Shown here in pieces: positions 37,789-47,752 of a DNA stretch of 64,000 nucleotides. The stretch comes from Candidatus Latescibacterota bacterium (GTDB lineage Bacteria > Latescibacterota > UBA2968 > GCA-2709665). Location of the stretch: positions 1,248,001-1,312,000 of the forward strand of contig OZ250150.1 in NCBI GenBank assembly GCA_965237675.1, given 5' to 3'. The translations under genes and the position numbers were made by a program. Each line of letters starts with the position of its first letter. Position 1 is the stretch's first letter. Under the pieces are notes generated by a model. That model made no database searches. It saw only the letters and a program-made list of their open reading frames with translations, and was not told the DNA's origin.

Positions 37789-39336
37789 TCAGGCATCCGC
37801 AATACGATATGAATACAGCGACGCCTTCCTCATGTAAAACCGATATCGGGTATAGCCGACGATCGTATTCACGGCCGGAACCCCATTCCAGGAAACCACG
37901 TGGTTCACGTCGTCTCCGGTGAACCGGTCGCAGTCCTCGCGACGATACCGTGCCCAGGGGTTCTCCATCGCATCCAGAACCTCGACGTCGATATATCCAC
38001 CCGGGGCGCACCGTGCGTTGATGATCAGTTTCTCTCCCGTGGAAAACTGCGGCCTCGTGCAAACGATCCCTTCCTGAAGCCCCGCATCGAGCGAGATGAA
38101 TCCGTCCAGCCTAATGGTCGCCAGGCCAAGCCCGCCGTTCAACTGATCGATTGTCAACGCCGCCTCCGGCGTATCCAGACCCCGCGATTTCCCCAAAACG
38201 TACCAGTCGTGATGGTAGTCCGCCCCACCGTAGTAAATGTAGTGGCGGTCGCCGACACGGAACGGCGTTATCACCGTGTCGATCTGAAATTCATCCCAGG
38301 AACCCCTTCCACCCCTGGGAACCACCCGCGGGCCGTGAGGATAATGGCGCCAGTCCACGCCGTCGTGGCTATAGACGAGTTCCGTGTCCTTCGTGCTGTC
38401 CACGGTATGAAATACCGGCATCAGTCCACAGTGATACCGGCCCATCCTGAAGGGGGCCAGCGAATAAAACTGATCGTCCAGATTGTGAAGCGCTCCCGGC
38501 GCCAGCACACGCACAGCGTCGGACCACGTGATCAGGTCTTCGCTTTCGATCCGGTAAATTGCGCGTTTGGGGATCCATCCGAAGGGCTGTGAGGGATAGT
38601 GTCTGACGAAGCGCTGATCCGCGTCGGGATTGCCTGTCTCCGCCGCGTAGTGGACACGCCCGTATATCACGTATCGTCCGCGTGATTCGTCCTTCAACAA
38701 CGTAAGCACGTCGCTTCCCCATATCGTGCTGACGGGGTTCCTGGCTTCCAGCGACCAACTCAGCCCTTCGCCCGAGTAAGCCATGCAGAGGCCCAGGGCA
38801 TGCGAGTGAGCGAGCGTGGTCTTCTTGGGAACGTTGACGTTTTCTTTTTCGGGAAGAAACGCCATCTTGTATCGCCTTGCCGGATCGGGGTCTTCTTCGT
38901 CCCGAATCACGCAGAATGCCACCGGCGTTCCGAAGGTCTCGTCCCAGGCCACGCGATTGGTGCCGGCGGCCTCAATTGAAACCGCGCCCAGGGCGGGCTT
39001 TTCCCACCGGATGCCATCGGAAGACTCGGCATAACTGATCCTCGGCTGCATCCGATGCTCCGCCGCGCCGCCCGCGAAGTCGCTCATAGAGATGTCGAGA
39101 TACCAGCACCGAAACCTGCCGTCCGGCTCGCGGAGCATCGTCACCGTTGTATTGAAATGCGGAAATACCTCCCACGGCTTGTCTCGCTTCAAAACGGGAT
39201 TGCCCGCGTGTTTTGTTGCCCGATGGCGGGTCCTCTTGACGTTCTTCACCCATTCCAGCACCGTGTCATCCAGAAAATACTGTACTTGCTCGGCAATGCG
39301 TTCATAGTGCCGTTCAGGGTTATAGCTGGCCAACAT
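37789..39336 (-). CDS. Five-bladed beta-propeller glycoside-hydrolase-like protein
   Basis: GNPVLKRDKPWE, YAESSDGIRWEKP, YSHDGVDW, LATIRLDGF repeats; substrate unknown. Confidence 0.7.
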   Translation of the reverse strand: MLASYNPERHYERIAEQVQYFLDDTVLEWVKNVKRTRHRATKHAGNPVLKRDKPWEVFPHFNTTVTMLREPDGRFRCWYLDISMSDFAGGAAEHRMQPRISYAESSDGIRWEKPALGAVSIEAAGTNRVAWDETFGTPVAFCVIRDEEDPDPARRYKMAFLPEKENVNVPKKTTLAHSHALGLCMAYSGEGLSWSLEARNPVSTIWGSDVLTLLKDESRGRYVIYGRVHYAAETGNPDADQRFVRHYPSQPFGWIPKRAIYRIESEDLITWSDAVRVLAPGALHNLDDQFYSLAPFRMGRYHCGLMPVFHTVDSTKDTELVYSHDGVDWRHYPHGPRVVPRGGRGSWDEFQIDTVITPFRVGDRHYIYYGGADYHHDWYVLGKSRGLDTPEAALTIDQLNGGLGLATIRLDGFISLDAGLQEGIVCTRPQFSTGEKLIINARCAPGGYIDVEVLDAMENPWARYRREDCDRFTGDDVNHVVSWNGVPAVNTIVGYTRYRFYMRKASLYSYRIADA

Positions 39337-40604: not shown

Positions 40605-40772
40605 GTAACGGTTCCGAGTCCGCATCCGGCCCGGGCGCGCCGCCGCCGACCGGTGGTATGCCGCCGCTCGTTTCGTCGCCCTTATGCCTTGACAGACGCC
40701 GGCCCGCATGTTATTCTTCGCTCTCGGTTCCGCAAAACAACGCCATTTCTCAAGAGAAAGGCAACCCATCTC

Positions 40773-41624
40773 ATGCGATTGCTTACCTTCGAATACCAGG
40801 GAGCGCGGCGCGTGGGCGTCCGGTCGGGAGATACGATCGTGGATGTGAACCGCGTCGATGCCGATATTCCCCCGGATCTCGTAAGATTGCTCGAGGCGGG
40901 GCCGGCTGCGCTGGGTTCGGCGCGGGAGGCGGCAGAGCGCGGCGAAGGTATCGATGCCGATCTCGTCCGTGTCGTGGCCCCCATCCAGAACCCTCAGAAG
41001 ATCCTCTGCATCGGCCTCAACTACGCCGACCACGCGGCCGAAAGCAATATGCCCATTCCCTCCGAGCCGGTGGTGTTTTCCAAGTTCTCTTCCACCATTG
41101 TGGGTCCCGGCGATGCGATCCGCCTGCCGTCGGTTACCCGGTCTATCGACTATGAGGCTGAACTGGTGGTTGTCATCGGAACGTCCGGAAAAGACATTTC
41201 CGAATCCGACGCGTTTGGACACGTGGCGGGCTATACGGTTGGTCACGACGTGAGCGCGCGGGACTTCCAGCTTGAAAAACCCGGCGGACAATGGCTGCTG
41301 GGGAAGACCTTCGACACCTTCGCGCCGCTGGGACCGGATATTGTCACACCCGACGAGGTCGACGACCCGCACAACCTGGATATACGCTGTATCCTGAACG
41401 GCGAAACCGTACAGGACTCGAATACGCAACAGTTGATTTTCAAGATCGACCAACTGATCGCCTACCTGTCCCGGGTTATCACCCTTCAGCCAGGCGACCT
41501 GATTTTCACGGGTACGCCGCCGGGAGTCGGCATGGCCAGGCAGCCGCAACTCTGGCTGAAGGCGGGGGACACCGTTGTCTGTGAAGTCGACGGTATCGGC
41601 AGGCTCGAAAATCCGGTTGTCTAG
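40773..41624 (+). CDS. Fumarylacetoacetate hydrolase family protein
   Basis: KILCIGLNYADH, DYEAEL, HDVSARD, GKTFD, DLIFTGTP.GVG. Confidence 0.94.
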   Translation: MRLLTFEYQGARRVGVRSGDTIVDVNRVDADIPPDLVRLLEAGPAALGSAREAAERGEGIDADLVRVVAPIQNPQKILCIGLNYADHAAESNMPIPSEPVVFSKFSSTIVGPGDAIRLPSVTRSIDYEAELVVVIGTSGKDISESDAFGHVAGYTVGHDVSARDFQLEKPGGQWLLGKTFDTFAPLGPDIVTPDEVDDPHNLDIRCILNGETVQDSNTQQLIFKIDQLIAYLSRVITLQPGDLIFTGTPPGVGMARQPQLWLKAGDTVVCEVDGIGRLENPVV

Positions 41625-41752
41625 GGCTGACGGATTCCCGGTCAGAAAATCGGGGTCATTGCGGTGGACCCGAATATCCGGTGATATGGAATCAACCCGG
41701 ATCTCGTCGTCCCCTCGGTCCTGGACACTCGACCTCCCGATATACGGGCCCG

Positions 41753-41819
41753 TATTGAGTTTCGCAATAACACGTAAATACGTTATATTACGCCAAAAGC
41801 CTACACACACGAGTGTGTA
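41753..41819. promoter_or_regulatory. AT-rich leader with three palindromes upstream of the XRE-mutase gene
   Basis: TATTG-7-CAATA, CGTAA-10-TTACG, TACACAC-4-GTGTGTA. Confidence 0.45.
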
Positions 41820-41885
41820 TGGGTCCGGTCGCGGCGGCGCAATCGTACTCTGAAGCCCGCATGCCGCGCAACGGAGGTTTCGAGG

Positions 41886-43670
41886 ATGAATTTCGGCGAC
41901 ATGATAGCCAGCGCCCGCAGGGGCAGGTTCAGCCAGCAGGGGCTGGGCGAAAAGATCGGTGTCTGGGGCACTTATATTGGTCAGATCGAGAAGGGAAAGC
42001 GAATCCCTTCGGATGAGCGTTGTCTGGACCTGGCCGCAGTCCTCGATCTGGAACCCAGGGCCGTTCTGATACAGGCCTACAGACAGCGCGCTCATACTAA
42101 AGAGGCCAGGCGGCTTTTCGATCAGATCGCGGGGTTGCTTGCCGATCCGGCCGGGCAGGGAGAACTCGCCCCGGAACGGATCGGACGCGCAGGCGAGCCG
42201 CCCTTCACCCGCGGCGCTTATCCCTCGATGTACCGCGGACGCCTTTGGACCTTCCGCCAGTATGCGGGATTCTCCACGCCATCGGAGACAAACGCCCGGT
42301 TTCGCGCGCTGCTTGCCGGGGGCCAGACCGGCCTGAGCGTGGCCTTTGACCTGCCCACACAGATGGGCTATGACTCGGACCATCCGAATGCAGAGGGAGA
42401 AGTAGGCAGGGTGGGGGTGGCCGTTGACGGTCTGTGGGATCTGGAAGCCCTGTTCGACGGGATCCCGCTGGACCGCATCAGCACGTCGATGACAATCAAT
42501 GCGACGGCGTGTATTCTTTTTGCATTTTACGCGGGCCTCGGAAAGAAGCGCGGGATGGCTTCGTCGGTGCTTACCGGTACGGTTCAGAACGACGTTCTCA
42601 AGGAATATGTTTCACGTGGAACCTATGTCTTCCCCATCGCCGATTCGATGCGCATGGCCGTGGACCTGATGGGCTATTGTCTCCAAGAGGCCCCAAAGTG
42701 GAATCCCATCAGCGTCAGCGGCTACCACATGAGGGAAGCGGGCGCAACCGCCGCCCAGGAGCTAGGTTTCACGCTCGCCCACGCCCTGGCGTATGCCGAT
42801 GCCGCCAGCGAAGCCGGCCTCGCGCTGGAGGGGGTGCTTCCGAAATTCTCCTTCTTCTTTGGGGTCCACAACCACTTCCTGGAGGAGATCGCCAAGTTCC
42901 GTGCGGCCAGGCGCCTTTGGAGCCGCCTCGTCGCGGAACGCCTGGGCGTCGGGGATCCTTACTGCCGGCGCCTGAGGTTTCACGCTCAGACGGCCGGCTC
43001 CACCCTCACTGCCCAGCAGCCGCTGAACAACTGCGCGCGGACCACGTTTCAGGCGCTGGCCGCCGTTCTGGGCGGCGCCCAGTCCCTGCACGTCAACGCC
43101 TATGACGAAGCGCTTGGCCTGCCGTCGGACAGGGGAGCGCAACTGGCCGTTCGCACCCAGCAGATTCTGGCCTATGAAAGCGGCATCCCCGACACCGTAG
43201 ATCCGATGGGCGGATCCTTCGCGGTCGAAAAATTGACCGATGAACTGGAGGAGGAAGCCATGGCCGTCCTGGAGTCCGTCGACCGCGAAGGCGGGGCAAC
43301 ACAGGCAGCCGCAAACGGCTTCACAGCCGCCTGTATCGCGAACTCCGCATACGAGGCGCAGAAGAAGATTGAATCCGGCGAGACCGTTGTGGTGGGGGTG
43401 AACCGGTATCAGGGTGCCCCGGACCCGCCGGTTCCGGCGTTCCAGCCCCCGCCGGATACGGAGCGTACACAGAAGGCGGGCCTGGCGCGGGTCCGGCGGC
43501 TGCGAGATCCAGACGCGATGAATTCTGCGCTTGACAACGTCGCTCGGCGGGCGCGAGGCGAGGGGTCGATCACGGAATCGGTCGTGGAGGCGGGGTTGGC
43601 CGGCGCAACGGTGGGCGAGATATCGGACAGCCTGCGTTCTGTTTTTGGATCCTACAGACCCGGAGGATAA
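41886..43670 (+). CDS. Methylmalonyl-CoA mutase substrate-binding subunit with N-terminal XRE helix-turn-helix
   Basis: aa ~1-60 FGDMIASARR..SQQGLGEKIGV..TYIGQIEKGKRIPS (XRE); then PFTRG.YPSMYRGRLWTFRQYAGF, SVAFDLPTQMGYDSD, QNDVLKEY, SGYHMREAG; no DxHxxG B12 domain. Confidence 0.9.
   Translation: MNFGDMIASARRGRFSQQGLGEKIGVWGTYIGQIEKGKRIPSDERCLDLAAVLDLEPRAVLIQAYRQRAHTKEARRLFDQIAGLLADPAGQGELAPERIGRAGEPPFTRGAYPSMYRGRLWTFRQYAGFSTPSETNARFRALLAGGQTGLSVAFDLPTQMGYDSDHPNAEGEVGRVGVAVDGLWDLEALFDGIPLDRISTSMTINATACILFAFYAGLGKKRGMASSVLTGTVQNDVLKEYVSRGTYVFPIADSMRMAVDLMGYCLQEAPKWNPISVSGYHMREAGATAAQELGFTLAHALAYADAASEAGLALEGVLPKFSFFFGVHNHFLEEIAKFRAARRLWSRLVAERLGVGDPYCRRLRFHAQTAGSTLTAQQPLNNCARTTFQALAAVLGGAQSLHVNAYDEALGLPSDRGAQLAVRTQQILAYESGIPDTVDPMGGSFAVEKLTDELEEEAMAVLESVDREGGATQAAANGFTAACIANSAYEAQKKIESGETVVVGVNRYQGAPDPPVPAFQPPPDTERTQKAGLARVRRLRDPDAMNSALDNVARRARGEGSITESVVEAGLAGATVGEISDSLRSVFGSYRPGG
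42608..42623. promoter_or_regulatory. parS-like site inside the mutase gene
   Basis: TGTTTCACGTGGAACC, one mismatch to the 44773 site. Confidence 0.5.
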
Positions 43671-43672
43671 CC

Positions 43673-44071
43673 GTGGACGGATGCGTGGATCACGTGGGCA
43701 TTGCGGTGGAGGGGATCGACCAGGCCATGGCTGCCTATTCCATGCTTGGGTTCCAAAAAATGGAAGACGAGGCGGTGGAGGCGGAAGGTATCCGGGCCGT
43801 TTTTCTCGGGGGCGGAGGCCGGACCCGGATCGAACTGCTCGAACCGTTGGACGACAGGAGTACCGTGGCGCGATTCCTTTCGAGACGGGGCCAGGGTCTC
43901 CACCACATCGCGATCATCGTAAAGGACATCGAAGCGGCCGTGTCAACCTGTAAAGACGAGGGGTTCGCGATCTCCGGGGATATCCGGATCGGAGCGCTCG
44001 GCAGACGGGTGGCGTTCGTGCATCCCAAAAGCGCATCGGGCGTCCTGATCGAACTCGTTCAGGCCGCGTGA
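43673..44071 (+). CDS. mce: Methylmalonyl-CoA epimerase (VOC family)
   Basis: DHVGIAV, IELLEP, GLHHIA, FVHPKSASGVLIEL; directly after the mutase. Confidence 0.92.
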   Translation: MDGCVDHVGIAVEGIDQAMAAYSMLGFQKMEDEAVEAEGIRAVFLGGGGRTRIELLEPLDDRSTVARFLSRRGQGLHHIAIIVKDIEAAVSTCKDEGFAISGDIRIGALGRRVAFVHPKSASGVLIELVQAA

Positions 44072-44716
44072 TCAGCAGTACCCAGCCGATACCCTGACAA
44101 GGATCGTATTCCTGCCGTGAGCCTCGGGCGCCATTGATTCTACGGACAAGACGGGGCCGTGGGGCCCGAATTCCCCTGCTTCCAGGAGGGCGCCGGGGCC
44201 CTTCATTGCGAACAACTCGCCATCTTTTTTGAGGAATCCCGACGACAGTCGCCAGAGCACCGGCAGGGACCCTACGGCGCGCGCAGTTACAATATCGTAC
44301 CGCTCCCGGTGTTCCTCACGCTTGCAGGCGTCCTCCGCCCGTTCGGTTGAAACCGATAGCCCGGTCAGTCCAAGTTCCCCCACCAGGTGGTTCAGGAAAA
44401 GTCCCTTCATTCGAGCCGACTCCACAAGCACAACATTCACTTCCGGGCGGGCTATCTTGACCGGCACCCCCGGAAAACCCCCACCCGATCCCAGGTCCAG
44501 CAACGAGATCGGCCCCGCGGGCAGAAAGGGCGTCACTCTCAAACAGTCGATAAAGTGGCGATCTCTAATCCTGTCCCGATCCCCCCTGGAAACCAGTCGC
44601 ACCCTTTCGGACCACGACCTGAGCAGCGCTTCATAGCGGAAGAACTGCGCGGCCTGTACTTCCGACAGGTCAACCGACAACGTCTTCGCGGCTGCAAGAA
44701 ATTCCTGATCGGTCAC
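44072..44716 (-). CDS. rsmG: 16S rRNA m7G527 methyltransferase
   Basis: HFIDCL, LDLGSGGGFPG, RAED, YDIVTARAV, AMKG. Confidence 0.94.
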   Translation of the reverse strand: MTDQEFLAAAKTLSVDLSEVQAAQFFRYEALLRSWSERVRLVSRGDRDRIRDRHFIDCLRVTPFLPAGPISLLDLGSGGGFPGVPVKIARPEVNVVLVESARMKGLFLNHLVGELGLTGLSVSTERAEDACKREEHRERYDIVTARAVGSLPVLWRLSSGFLKKDGELFAMKGPGALLEAGEFGPHGPVLSVESMAPEAHGRNTILVRVSAGYC

Positions 44717-44772
44717 CGATCCTCCACAGGCGCCCGGAAAACCGACGCTTCGATTCCACGGACAGCATCCGA

Positions 44773-44788
44773 TGTTTCACGTGGAACA
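44773..44788. promoter_or_regulatory. parS centromere-like site
   Basis: TGTTTCACGTGGAACA matches the parS consensus; origin-proximal. Confidence 0.85.
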
Positions 44789-45247
44789 TGAGCCGTCAGC
44801 GGTCAGTTTGAAGCAAAAGGCGAAAGGCAAATTCAACATCCACTTCTCCCCAAATTTCCTGCCTCCGGCGGGTTCCTTAAAAACCGGGAGAAGTAAGACG
44901 GGAGAAGTGAGACGACCGCTCCGCAAACCACCGCTTTCGTGCCATCCTTCGCGATACACTTCTGCTTTCCAGTTAGCGAGACTCCGGCTACGTAGGTGTC
45001 ATATGACAAAGTTACCAACCCGTCTCCCTTCTTGCCTCTTTCTTCTTTCCGCTTTTAAAGGTCCCCGCTAGGCGCGGAGCCTCCCATATGCACAGCGCGA
45101 ATTTGCTCACGGGATGCACCGGATCTGCTGCCCTACCAGCCACAGTGGATATCCGTGTTCGGTGCGGGACGGAACCCGGCGCTCTGCTCTGGAAATACTC
45201 TCAAATGGCATCGCGTCAGATACCGGCGTGGTTGCCCTGTGAGCGAG

Positions 45248-46143
45248 GAGCCAATAGCAGTCAGCAGTCAGCTTAAACCGGTTTGCGATACGGCCCAGCG
45301 TTACCATTTACCGTTGTCAACGCAAATATGTGGGCAACTTTGAAAGTTGCCCCTACAAATGCAAAAACGGCGCAAAGCATATAGCGATAGGCGGTTCAAC
45401 CGCAAATCCTCACGGCGGCCCTTCGGGGTCTTCCTCTCGACCGTCCGGCGGTGGCGAAGGGTCTTTTCCGCGCTATTCCGTCCTCCGCCTTCGCATGGGG
45501 AGTGCCGAAAACTTGGCAGGGCACAATCCCTGGTTTCCGTTGTAAGAGTAGTTCGCGGAAAAGCAGCCCCGCGGCGTTTGAGCGGCGCCGTTCTTTTTGG
45601 TCCTTTTTCTTTGGCGAGAAAGAAAAAGGACAAAGAAAAAAGAATAACAGGATAAAGACAGAAAGAAATGACCTCGCGCGCCCGTACCACAACCCATCCT
45701 TCGGGTACAGCTGTTAGCGGTCAGCCGTCAGCTTACACCGGATAACGATGCGGACTGGCGATATTAATTCACGGATATCTGCGCCCGTATGCGGGCAACC
45801 ACAAGGGTTGCCCCTACAAATGCAGCGACCGCGCGGCGTAAAGCAGCGGTCAGCAGCCAGCGAGAAACCAACAACATAAAACCGGCGAGAATCCTTTGCG
45901 ATATTGCTAAACGATTGGGCGAACGGGACGTCCGCGTTTCAAATTGTCGCAAAATGCAACACCGGTCGCGCGGAGGGTTTTTCCGTGTTGATCCGTACAG
46001 CACCGCGGCTTGGTGTATCCTTCTCCGCACGTAGGACAAAGGCGCTTGTAGTCATCCGTCCTGCGATTCGCCGAAAAACCGGCCTCGCGCCGAGCGGCGC
46101 GGTTCTTTTTGGTCCTTTTTCTTGCGCGAACAAGAAAAAGGAC
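45248..46143. repeat. Two diverged composite repeat units in tandem
   Basis: Each unit: TCAGC heptamers, ACCGG block, REP, then GAGCGGCGC.GTTCTTTTTGGTCCTTTTTCTT..AAGAAAAAGGAC (45580-45631; 46092-46143). Confidence 0.75.
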
Positions 46144-46396
46144 GAAGAAAAATTAAAAGGCGAAGGGAGCGGAAATGCCTATATATGCCCGGAACGCGGT
46201 TCCAGGCACCGATTGTCCGCCAACAGGCGGACTGTTTAGACCTATTGAATAAACCACCAGCGGACCACCCCAAAGAGTGTTACCTATGTACGCGGTCTGT
46301 ACAGGCGTACAGGAAAATGAGCGAAAAAATCATATATAAACCGATTTAACGTGCCCGTGCGTCCTTCTTCCTTCTCCCCTCTACCGCCTCCCGCCT

Positions 46397-47752
46397 CTAT
46401 TTTCCGATACAGAAGGTACTGAAAATCCGGTCCAGGATCTCCTCCGACGTGGTCTCGCCTACGATCTCAGCCAGCGCGTCGGTCGCCTCCCGCAAATCCA
46501 CCGCCACCACTTCCCCGGGAAGTCCTTCGTCCAGCGCCGCAGTCGCCCGGCCAAGCGCGTCTCCCGCCCGCCTCAACGCCTCCACGTGACGCCCGCGCGT
46601 CACCACGCCGGGTTCGGGATCGGAGATCGACATGACCCGCCCGTGTATCCGTTTCCTGAGACGGTCGAGGCCATCCCCCGTGAGGGCGGAGATGGAGAGC
46701 CCTGGAAACCCCTGATCGCCGCGCCAATCGGAATGAAGGCCAAGATCCTTCTTATTCATCACCAGAAGCACGTTTTCACGATCCACACCCTCGACCATGT
46801 CATCCAACCCCGCGGTAGCCGAGACGGACGCATCGACGACAAAAAGCACAAGCATGGACCGTGTCATCGCTTCCCGTGACCTTCTGGCGCTCTCGCGCTC
46901 AATGGGGTCGCGCGGCTCCGAAATACCGGCCGTATCGATCAGTGTGACGCGAATACCGTCCAGGGTAATGGACTCTTCAATCGTATCCCGCGTGGTTCCG
47001 GACACCGGCGACACAATCGCCCGATCCTCTTCCAGCAGCCGGTTGAGCAGGCTGGATTTACCCGCGTTCGGGGGGCCCGCCAGCGCAACGAGGGCGCCCT
47101 CGCGTATGACTTTACCATGCCGATAGGAGGCAATCAGGCGCTCGATTTCTTCCGCCGCCCGGCTGAGCGACGGACGTATCGCGTCCTCGTCGACGCCCGC
47201 ATCTTCGTAAAAATCCAATCCTGCCTCAAGCAACGTCAGCGAATCACGCAGGGCTTCCGCCAGAACCTCGAACCTGGCCTTCAATCCACCGCGCAACTGG
47301 AAATACGCGGACCGCAGGCCCCGGTCCGCGCGGGCGGCGATCAAATCCCCAATCGCCTCGGCTTGGGTCAGATCGATTCGTCCGTTGAGAAATGCCCGCC
47401 GGGTAAACTCACCGGGCTCGGCCGGTCGGGCGCCCGCCGTCACCAGGGCCTCCATCGCCCGTTGTAGAAGGAGAGGGCCTCCGTGGCAGTTGAATTCGAC
47501 CGTATCTTCGCCCGTAAACGACCGGGACGCCCGCATCACGGAAACCAGAACCTCGTCCAGGTCCCGGTCTCCGACAACAAATCTCCCGTACGTCAGGCGA
47601 CGGTCCTCAAGGCGGTTCAATTCGCGTGAACCACAAAAAAAACCGGAGGCAATTCCAACCGCCACCGGACCCGTTAGCCGCACGATGCCTATCGCTGCGT
47701 CGCCGGTTCCGGTGGCGATTGCGACAATGGTATCGCGATCCGAAGGTCGCAT
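46397..47752 (-). CDS. mnmE: tRNA modification GTPase
   Basis: DTIVAIAT, SFTGED, GEFTRRAFLNG, GPPNAGKSS, GTTRD, DTAG, FCIGK. Confidence 0.97.
   Translation of the reverse strand: MRPSDRDTIVAIATGTGDAAIGIVRLTGPVAVGIASGFFCGSRELNRLEDRRLTYGRFVVGDRDLDEVLVSVMRASRSFTGEDTVEFNCHGGPLLLQRAMEALVTAGARPAEPGEFTRRAFLNGRIDLTQAEAIGDLIAARADRGLRSAYFQLRGGLKARFEVLAEALRDSLTLLEAGLDFYEDAGVDEDAIRPSLSRAAEEIERLIASYRHGKVIREGALVALAGPPNAGKSSLLNRLLEEDRAIVSPVSGTTRDTIEESITLDGIRVTLIDTAGISEPRDPIERESARRSREAMTRSMLVLFVVDASVSATAGLDDMVEGVDRENVLLVMNKKDLGLHSDWRGDQGFPGLSISALTGDGLDRLRKRIHGRVMSISDPEPGVVTRGRHVEALRRAGDALGRATAALDEGLPGEVVAVDLREATDALAEIVGETTSEEILDRIFSTFCIGK

Follow-up and report, generated by a model that had tools for sequence, protein, structure and literature searches.

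A helix-turn-helix domain fused to the large subunit of methylmalonyl-CoA mutase in one genus of Gemmatimonadota: an enzyme that probably also switches its own operon

Introduction

How does a metabolic enzyme come to control the transcription of its own gene, and can the steps still be read in present-day genomes? Few enzymes are also transcription factors, most of these are ancient, and accounts of how they originated are guesswork. The question is raised by a gene on contig OZ250150.1 (assembly GCA_965237675.1, deposited as Candidatus Latescibacterota bacterium), of which we analysed positions 1,248,001 to 1,312,000; this whole stretch of 64,000 nucleotides (nt) is called the window below, and unprefixed coordinates are counted from its first letter. 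In this gene a single open reading frame (ORF) joins an XRE-type helix-turn-helix (HTH) domain to the large subunit of a methylmalonyl-CoA mutase (MCM). An earlier note, made from the sequence of the window alone, had suggested a self-regulating enzyme or acyl-CoA sensor and had warned that the fusion could be an accident. Our analysis indicates that in one genus of Gemmatimonadota the mutase probably has a second role, as a switch of its own operon. The intermediates are visible at one syntenic locus, namely an autoregulated repressor on its own, a mutase operon without the HTH, and a fusion fixed in a genus. The distribution is narrow and the origin appears unusually legible from comparison of the loci.

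The fusion gene and its two domains

The operon and the parts of the fusion protein, with lengths in amino acids (aa), are as follows.

41886..43670, forward strand: XRE-HTH/mutase fusion gene, 594 aa, one uninterrupted ORF with an ATG start
41886..42152, forward strand: aa 1-89, predicted XRE/HTH_3 DNA-binding domain with a sixth helix (HTH_3 match; homology to the N-terminal half of a free 166-aa regulator)
42153..42185, forward strand: aa 90-100, linker, the shortest form within the genus
42186..43670, forward strand: predicted methylmalonyl-CoA mutase large (substrate-binding barrel) subunit of the split type, without a B12-binding domain (PF01642, TIGR00641)
43673..44071, forward strand: methylmalonyl-CoA epimerase, second gene of the operon (TIGR03081, 137.6 bits, cut-off 114.95)

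A GGAGG motif lies 8 nt 5' of the fusion ATG. The N-terminus of the protein matches HTH_3 (PF01381) over aa 15-57 with 33.8 bits (cut-off 23, E 3.4e-8), and the C-terminal part matches MM_CoA_mutase (PF01642) over aa 101-588 with 638.9 bits (cut-off 22.1), covering profile positions 27-512 of 512. The barrel is also matched by TIGR00641 (acid_CoA_mut_N) at 640.9 bits (cut-off 303.8). The Pfam domains found in the protein are HTH families and MM_CoA_mutase only. These Pfam and NCBIfam matches agree with the earlier description of one 594-aa ORF with an XRE HTH, a helical extension and a complete mutase barrel lacking a B12-binding domain, with the epimerase gene starting 2 bp after its stop codon. 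The span then given to the feature, 41753..44071, takes in the leader at its start and runs to the end of the epimerase gene; the ORF itself has the coordinates listed above. It had also been considered that translation might start internally. No conserved internal start is present: the protein has no Met between aa 6 and 113, and the sole in-frame alternative start near the junction is a TTG at codon 84, the position of which is variable.

Conservation of the junction and selection on the two halves

Among 41 related genomes searched, both parts lie in one open, stop-free frame (609-672 aa) in 14/14 other genomes of the genus. An ATG stands at the equivalent place in 13 of the 14, and the proteins are 594-618 aa long; with the present genome included, the in-frame fusion is found in 15/15 genus genomes. 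Outside the genus no fusion was detected among the 168 genomes of the phylum that were scanned. In the protein databases 11 clusters (601-692 aa) combine PF01381 with PF01642, with 60-74% identity to the query over aa 1-105. Such fused proteins carry only the name 'methylmalonyl-CoA mutase family protein [Gemmatimonadota bacterium]', which conceals the regulatory domain. Contigs from public sequencing runs of two studies have 0 differences from the window over 41600-42600, either of which may be the source of the same DNA, and a further public contig has 74 nt instead of 17 nt at 42153-42171, in the linker, with the frame kept. The junction is supported by the genus genomes, the database clusters and the public-run contigs alike, and the fusion is a real two-domain protein conserved across the genus, not an accident of a single genome.

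In one genus genome, G009 (L017, G009:C1 ~1650125-1650165), a 7-nt deletion relative to the closest relative puts codons 1-11 out of frame, while the remaining ORF is intact.

The ratio of non-synonymous to synonymous substitution rates (dN/dS) was estimated by the Nei-Gojobori method from 91 pairs of 14 genus sequences; G009 was omitted for its N-terminal frameshift. Synonymous divergence (dS) among the fused genes is ~0.6-0.7.

HTH, aa 1-89: dN/dS 0.17
HTH core, aa 14-60: dN/dS 0.10
Barrel: dN/dS 0.12
Linker: dN/dS 0.73-0.81

Purifying selection acts on both domains and the linker drifts. The length of the linker ranges from 11 to 35 residues among the genomes, in a block of 35 alignment columns, and in the present genome it shows an additional in-frame deletion compared to relatives. 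Free regulators of the same HTH lineage, compared within genus g6, have dN/dS of 0.11 in the HTH and 0.135 in the C-terminal domain. With 0.17 in the fused and 0.11 in the free form there is no clear relaxation, the fused HTH being about as constrained as that of a functioning regulator. In the recognition helix, 15/15 fused proteins have the identical stretch GVWGTYIGQIE, which is nearly unchanged from the free regulators. A catalytic and a DNA-binding domain are joined in one polypeptide and both are maintained, and these comparisons lead us to regard a vestigial scar as excluded for practical purposes. The architecture search in relatives and the estimate of selection on both parts had been proposed in the earlier note; its caveat of an accidental in-frame fusion is removed by the conservation throughout the genus together with the purifying selection on both parts.

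Right after the recognition helix, at aa 38 (41997-41999), the residue is Lys (GKR) in 15/15 fused proteins and Glu (GER) in free regulators. In the sequences compared this charge reversal coincides with the fusion.

Probable origin of the fusion at the FAA-hydrolase/GidB locus

The genes which mark the locus in the window were assigned by family match, and the two anchors also by synteny.

40653..41624, forward strand: FAA-hydrolase-family gene, upstream syntenic anchor
44072..44716, reverse strand: rsmG/gidB, downstream syntenic anchor
46397-47752, reverse strand: mnmE, beyond gidB

Over aa 1-89 the fusion is 55-67% identical to free 165-167-aa proteins of neighbouring genera, and the homology ends at '...LLADP', at ~aa 89. 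The free XRE regulators of Gemmatimonadota are 165-192 aa long (e.g. P0012) and are described in the sources as 'transcriptional regulator with XRE-family HTH domain'. Their locus is the slot between the FAA-hydrolase gene and gidB/mnmE: both anchors are present at 13/14 order-level loci, and the 14th ends at a contig edge. In genus g5, of the same family as the fusion genus, this slot is taken up by an unfused mutase of 558-563 aa with its own N-terminal segment of ~59 aa, and then by the epimerase. One locus is found in three states, with a free HTH gene in the order, an unfused mutase with epimerase in g5, and the fusion in the present genus (g1).

This history differs from the background that the earlier note had brought in, which was that of separate XRE regulators of the PccR, PrpR and RamB type. 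The HTH is not of that type and comes instead from a small autoregulated XRE protein of 166 aa at the same locus. The note had further held that its idea would be refuted if relatives carried the two parts as separate genes and the fusion were unique or unsupported by reads. Relatives do carry them separately, but in none of the 168 phylum genomes searched do a separate regulator gene and a separate mutase gene adjoin each other, and the fusion is present genus-wide rather than unique. Neither the regulator in free form nor its C-terminal domain was found in the present genome.

From synteny we infer that the fusion arose in place, at the FAA-hydrolase/GidB locus. The ancestor would have had the order FAA-hydrolase, HTH gene, mutase-epimerase, and then gidB on the opposite strand. 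A single deletion would have brought codon ~89 of the regulator up against the mutase, a few residues short of PFTRG, and would have removed both the C-terminal dimerisation domain of the regulator and the ~60-aa N-terminal arm of the mutase. The HTH and linker stand where solved and unfused mutases have a segment of 60-80 aa before PFTRG.

What the regulator would have lost was assessed with a model of the free form. In the model (confidence score pLDDT 94.6) an N-terminal part of six helices is followed by a helical C-terminal domain. Its HTH superimposes on the P22 c2 N-domain with a root-mean-square deviation of 1.1 A over 61 columns (TMt 0.84-0.86); the next structural neighbours are SinR, 434, C.AhdI, ClgR and DdrO, sequence identity to such repressors is only 25-32%, and the five-helix fold of Cro/C1 is present in the model of the free orthologue. 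The whole model gave no match to solved structures at E 0.001, and the C-terminal domain matched no Pfam family. When modelled as a homodimer, the free regulator reached an interface score (ipSAE) of 0.67 compared to 0.40 for the best control. The mark for ipSAE was reached by 20/30 proteins solved as pairs and by 1/23 solved as single chains, a calibration which for the homodimer is only rough (own alignment), and likeness to solved HTH dimers may raise the score. At least 94% of contacts are common to the three runs, and partner pLDDT is at least 89. The predicted dimer interface is mostly formed by aa 87-165, which is the part lost in the fusion, and the deletion is predicted to have removed the dimerisation module of the free regulator. 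In the solved mutases of the family (those of P. shermanii and human, and HcmAB) two barrel subunits form a pair. By analogy, the barrel could supply the pairing that a palindromic operator requires.

Candidate operator in the leader

The earlier note had listed three palindromes in the leader of the operon. All three are readable in the sequence, and only the third is conserved in relatives.

41742-41755: leader palindrome 1, ATACGGGCCCGTAT, not conserved in relatives
41761..41789, forward strand: sigma-70-like promoter candidate TTCGCA-17-TATATT (consensus match; 1 site compared to 0.2 expected from shuffles)
41772-41783: leader palindrome 2, ACGTAAATACGT, not conserved in relatives
41802-41819: leader palindrome 3, candidate operator, TACACACACGAGTGTGTA, i.e. 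TACACAC-ACGA-GTGTGTA, which recurs in relatives

With the settings used, inverted-repeat detection reported only the palindrome at 41802-41819. It contains the core ACAC-N6-GTGT of the regulator family at 41805-41818 and starts 13 nt past the promoter-like site. At another locus (L018) a similar promoter-like TTCACA-17-TAAATT, read by eye, has an equal offset from the palindrome. A palindrome just downstream of a promoter-like site would be in a repressor-type position, and binding at this place is predicted. No intrinsic terminator was found between the FAA-hydrolase gene and the operon, and no riboswitch or known RNA matched near the gathering score in the leader or operon.

The long form ACACAC-N4-GTGTGT is confined to 3 loci in the 5.6-Mb genome, compared to 0.28 expected from base composition, and at 1-3 loci per genome in 15/15 genus genomes; the backwards control gave 0 in all 15. 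Palindromes of the same half-sites are seen repeatedly in the upstream regions of free regulators from ~18 genera. ACAC-N6-GTGT was found within 300 nt upstream of free HTH genes at 17/23 loci, an enrichment of about 100-fold, with 30 occurrences in 6.9 kb of upstream sequence, 2 in the 54.5 kb of the rest of the loci and 0 in coding sequences. The everted control gave 0 upstream of these genes. Such an enrichment is what a family of repressors that regulate their own genes is expected to show. Within the fusion genus, 14/14 loci with a complete intergenic region between the FAA-hydrolase gene and the fusion have the core in this region (everted control 0), and the arms of the palindrome are conserved and its centre variable, even where it is displaced from the gene. 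The third palindrome is of the operator type of the HTH lineage and as such fits the self-regulation proposed earlier.

Two other copies of the long palindrome, ACACACAC-NN-GTGTGTGT, each followed by TATAT, occur in the present genome (G000).

C1:2142719-2142736 (L084:1220-1237): long palindrome copy, ~80 nt upstream of a NIF3/DUF34 gene
C1:2274987-2275004 (L085:1488-1505): long palindrome copy, ~310 nt upstream of a 248-aa CbiX + Oxidored_molyb gene

They were compared with 20 further palindrome sites from other genus genomes. A NIF3-like gene adjoins 12 of the 20, and the palindrome is 77-102 nt from the start of the NIF3-like gene at 10 of these 12 sites and in the present genome; one of the other two lies at 313 nt and one is a partial match. 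A CbiX-like gene adjoins 6/20, and the distance from palindrome to gene start is 140-550 nt at those sites and in the present genome. Three sites matched neither a NIF3-like nor a CbiX-like gene. Both extra sites of the present genome are conserved in the genus, but no palindrome was found near the NIF3-like or CbiX-like orthologues of other genera, nor at the B12-subunit/MeaB locus of the present genome. It is possible that the genus widened the regulon after the fusion; a link of the extra sites to cobalt/B12 supply is speculation.

Mutase type and partner genes

The closest solved barrel is that of HcmA (4R3U_A, E 2e-144), and the methylmalonyl-CoA mutases of human (2XIJ_A), P. shermanii (1REQ_A) and M. 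tuberculosis (6OXC_A) match with E ~1e-130 to 1e-132. The domain assignment of the barrel is based on these sequence matches to solved mutases and not on an AlphaFold model. The substrate residues of MCM, which we take to be Tyr89, Gln197, Arg207 and Tyr243-His244 in P. shermanii numbering, fall in four motifs that had been named in the earlier note. In a residue alignment with the P. shermanii MCM alpha chain (1REQ_A), the fusion shares RQY, QND, the Arg of SRG ('vsRg') and GYH without change. HcmA differs at the Tyr and Arg places, with RQI (Ile for Tyr) and AQK (Gln for Arg). As the MCM-type residues are kept in the fusion and two of them are replaced by Ile and Gln in HcmA, the barrel is of the methylmalonyl-CoA type; its catalytic function is predicted.

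The fusion carries the sole mutase barrel of the genome. A 141-aa B12-binding subunit (PF02310, GLDGHDRG) is encoded by a gene which overlaps that of a 317-aa MeaB at C1:165.6-167.0 kb, ~1.12 Mb from the fusion, in line with the earlier remark that neither lies nearby. A PCC-beta-like carboxyltransferase is also encoded in the genome. Since the B12 subunit and MeaB are encoded elsewhere, the system is a split-type mutase whose large subunit bears an extra N-terminal domain.

Proposed mechanism and alternatives

We consider it on balance probable, by a modest degree, that the fusion is bifunctional: an active large subunit of a split mutase which, as a pair, binds ACAC-N6-GTGT and represses the mutase-epimerase operon. 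DNA binding and enzyme activity are both predicted. The barrel pair would hold two HTH domains on flexible linkers, and the HTH pair would bind the palindrome just downstream of the promoter-like site and so repress the operon. In this genus the fusion would probably also act at the palindromes by the NIF3/DUF34 and CbiX-like genes. The enzyme would still work with the separately encoded B12 subunit and MeaB.

Several observations weigh against this bifunctional repressor. At 8/14 genus loci non-coding repeats separate the palindrome from the ATG, placing it 588-1101 nt upstream, and at that distance tight autoregulation is not obviously kept. The short core is common genome-wide, with 57 matches compared to 50 for the everted control, and exact copies of ACACAC-N4-GTGTGT were found in 0/5 genomes with free regulators and in 1/5 genomes without them. 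Another genus-specific factor could own both extra sites, as the orthologues in other genera lack the motif. In solved MCMs the N-terminal arm of the mutase embraces the partner subunit; with this arm gone, dimerisation of the fusion barrel is an assumption. The deletion in G009 may have damaged helix 1 recently, or it may stem from faulty assembly. Finally, the fusion was modelled poorly by AlphaFold from an alignment of 17 rows (mean pLDDT 44): the barrel is left unfolded and the model is unusable for domain packing; in its HTH region six helices are predicted with pLDDT 58-80. A regulon derived from the short core was rejected because of its 57 matches compared to 50 in the control, and as a test of co-occurrence with the HTH the exact long palindrome was replaced by the ACAC-N6-GTGT count, the free genes varying in arm length and spacing.

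A further step would be that DNA binding is gated, either by acyl-CoA occupancy of the barrel or by docking of the small subunit loaded with adenosylcobalamin (AdoCbl) and of MeaB, with a regulon including the CbiX-like and NIF3/DUF34 genes that ties mutase supply to cobalt/B12. We hold this extension to be tentative and rather unlikely. The idea of the barrel as a ligand sensor gating DNA binding, put forward in the earlier note, is neither supported nor contradicted by the computation. If the gating were true, the acyl-CoA mutase family would have its first trigger enzyme, and the fusion would be a dated natural swap of a repressor dimerisation domain for a dimeric enzyme by a single local deletion. 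A response of DNA binding to acyl-CoA or to the B12 subunit would be a new sensing logic for propionate/methylmalonyl-CoA metabolism, in the form of a compact switch.

The fusion could also be a constitutive regulator on an enzyme scaffold, in which the HTH keeps its ancestral job, namely autoregulation and control of any other targets that the ancestor had, and the barrel merely replaces the dimerisation domain, with no metabolite sensing. This we judge unlikely, though it deserves to be taken seriously. The part lost is the predicted dimer interface, and the HTH is about as constrained as in the free regulators. With no free regulator found in the genome, any ancestral function that is still required must be carried by the fusion. 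A variable, near-neutral linker also suggests that the domains are loosely coupled. Such a scaffold leaves unexplained, beyond adjacency, why the downstream gene should have been chosen as partner, and tying regulator dose 1:1 to an abundant metabolic enzyme would be odd for an unrelated regulon.

It is less probable again, and in our judgement quite improbable, that the HTH was recruited as an enzyme module which does not bind DNA, either substituting for the arm in subunit contacts or docking MeaB or the small subunit, and that the palindrome is a relic or is bound by something else. The HTH and linker occupy exactly the place of the ~60-aa arm of unfused relatives, and the enzyme HppE (2BNO), whose HTH-like domain is not known to bind DNA, is among the structural neighbours of the HTH. 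The distant palindrome at 8/14 loci and the possible absence of helix 1 in G009 would be easily accommodated. What speaks against such a module is the invariance of GVWGTYIGQIE in the 15 fused proteins, almost as in free regulators, together with the dN/dS of 0.10 in the HTH core and the conservation of the palindrome arms even where displaced; a flexible, fast-evolving linker is moreover unsuited to a fixed structural arm.

That the fusion is an accident, neutral or slightly deleterious, in which the HTH is vestigial, or that it is an artefact of annotation or assembly, is very improbable, for in spite of the many intergenic repeat insertions and indels in the genus and the further in-frame deletion in the linker of this genome, the fusion is fixed in 15/15 genomes at dS ~0.6-0.7, the HTH has a dN/dS of 0.17 beside 0.73 in the linker, and independent assemblies and metagenome contigs agree on the frame.

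Returning to the bifunctional repressor, its interest lies in what was kept and what was exchanged. The old operator would have been retained, and the dimerisation domain of the regulator replaced by an enzyme that is expected to pair. If true, this is a case of a metabolic enzyme gaining gene control by a single deletion.

Further observations at the locus and in related genomes

A conserved coiled-coil protein of ~115 aa is encoded divergently from the free regulator (L030:2063-2575 and L031:2109-2609, both forward strand). It has no Pfam match above the family cut-off, its gene is missing from the slot in the fusion genus, and ACAC...GTGT palindromes lie between it and the free regulator gene. 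Two unfused mutases, of two other genera, lie in open frames of 633 and 594 aa (G105:C2:1739875-1741380 and G094:C707:702-2192, respectively), compared to the usual 556-584.

Other enzymes fused to this HTH subfamily were sought among 39 representatives (E up to 1e-10), and these proved to be mostly small single-domain proteins of 106-282 aa. Nine of the 39 are 470-1228 aa long, and all but one of the nine match in several stretches. Separately, a 561-aa database protein (P0170) matches the HTH weakly with its first 57 residues (E 1e-4, 43% identity) and may be an HTH-enzyme fusion.

The 1.7-kb gap between gidB and mnmE (44717-46396) consists of non-coding repeat units, each with a hairpin-like GGTCCTTTTTCTT...AAGAAAAAGGAC; the repeat pairs are 45306-45373/45767-45834 and 45580-45640/46092-46152. 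Repeat elements also lie upstream of the fusion gene at loci L013, L016 and L019-L024, and their translated frames give the peptide strings of the gap repeats. These repeats may represent a genus-specific family of small mobile or repetitive extragenic palindrome (REP)-like elements. Upstream of the operon, a 515-aa ORF at 37789-39336 (reverse strand) had no Pfam family at E up to 0.01.

Comparison with known systems

In the literature open to our search, which mostly excluded subscription journals, no paper on an HTH-mutase fusion was found, and nothing relevant was found on Gemmatimonadota and mutase.

The barrel is that of a split-type large subunit (TIGR00641), and its solved relatives (1REQ_A, 2XIJ_A, 6OXC_A and HcmA 4R3U_A) match along its full length, with E ~1e-131 to 1e-144. 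The fusion differs from them, and from the unfused mutases, in that the HTH and linker replace the segment preceding PFTRG. With the free XRE regulators it shares the recognition helix, the locus within the order and the upstream palindrome type, ACAC...GTGT. The free regulators differ in having a helical C-terminal domain as predicted dimer interface where the fusion has the mutase. In its combination of an HTH with a helical oligomerisation domain, the free ancestor resembles repressors of the SinR/DdrO type.

PccR, PrpR and RamB are ScfR-type regulators of ~470 aa with further non-enzymatic domains. They resemble the fusion in the association of HTH_3 with genes of the propionate/methylmalonyl-CoA pathway. 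The ScfR layout itself was not seen, the fusion and its free 165-166-aa relatives having no Pfam domains beyond the HTH families and, in the fusion, the mutase. The B12 photoregulators CarH and LitR consist of a MerR HTH and a B12-binding Rossmann domain, and they likewise join a DNA-binding domain to a module from the world of B12 enzymes. The fusion differs from CarH in its partner, which is the substrate barrel without a B12-binding domain, and in its XRE-type HTH.

The nearest counterparts in logic are PutA, BirA and NadR. As in these proteins, a DNA-binding domain and an enzyme of the proposed target pathway are found in one polypeptide, with a palindrome at its own promoter. The DNA-binding fold of PutA is a ribbon-helix-helix and that of BirA a winged helix, whereas the fusion uses a Cro/C1-type HTH_3 and its enzyme is an acyl-CoA mutase barrel. 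Ligand-gated DNA binding, the defining behaviour of PutA, BirA and NadR, is hypothetical for the fusion, which is young and confined to one genus.

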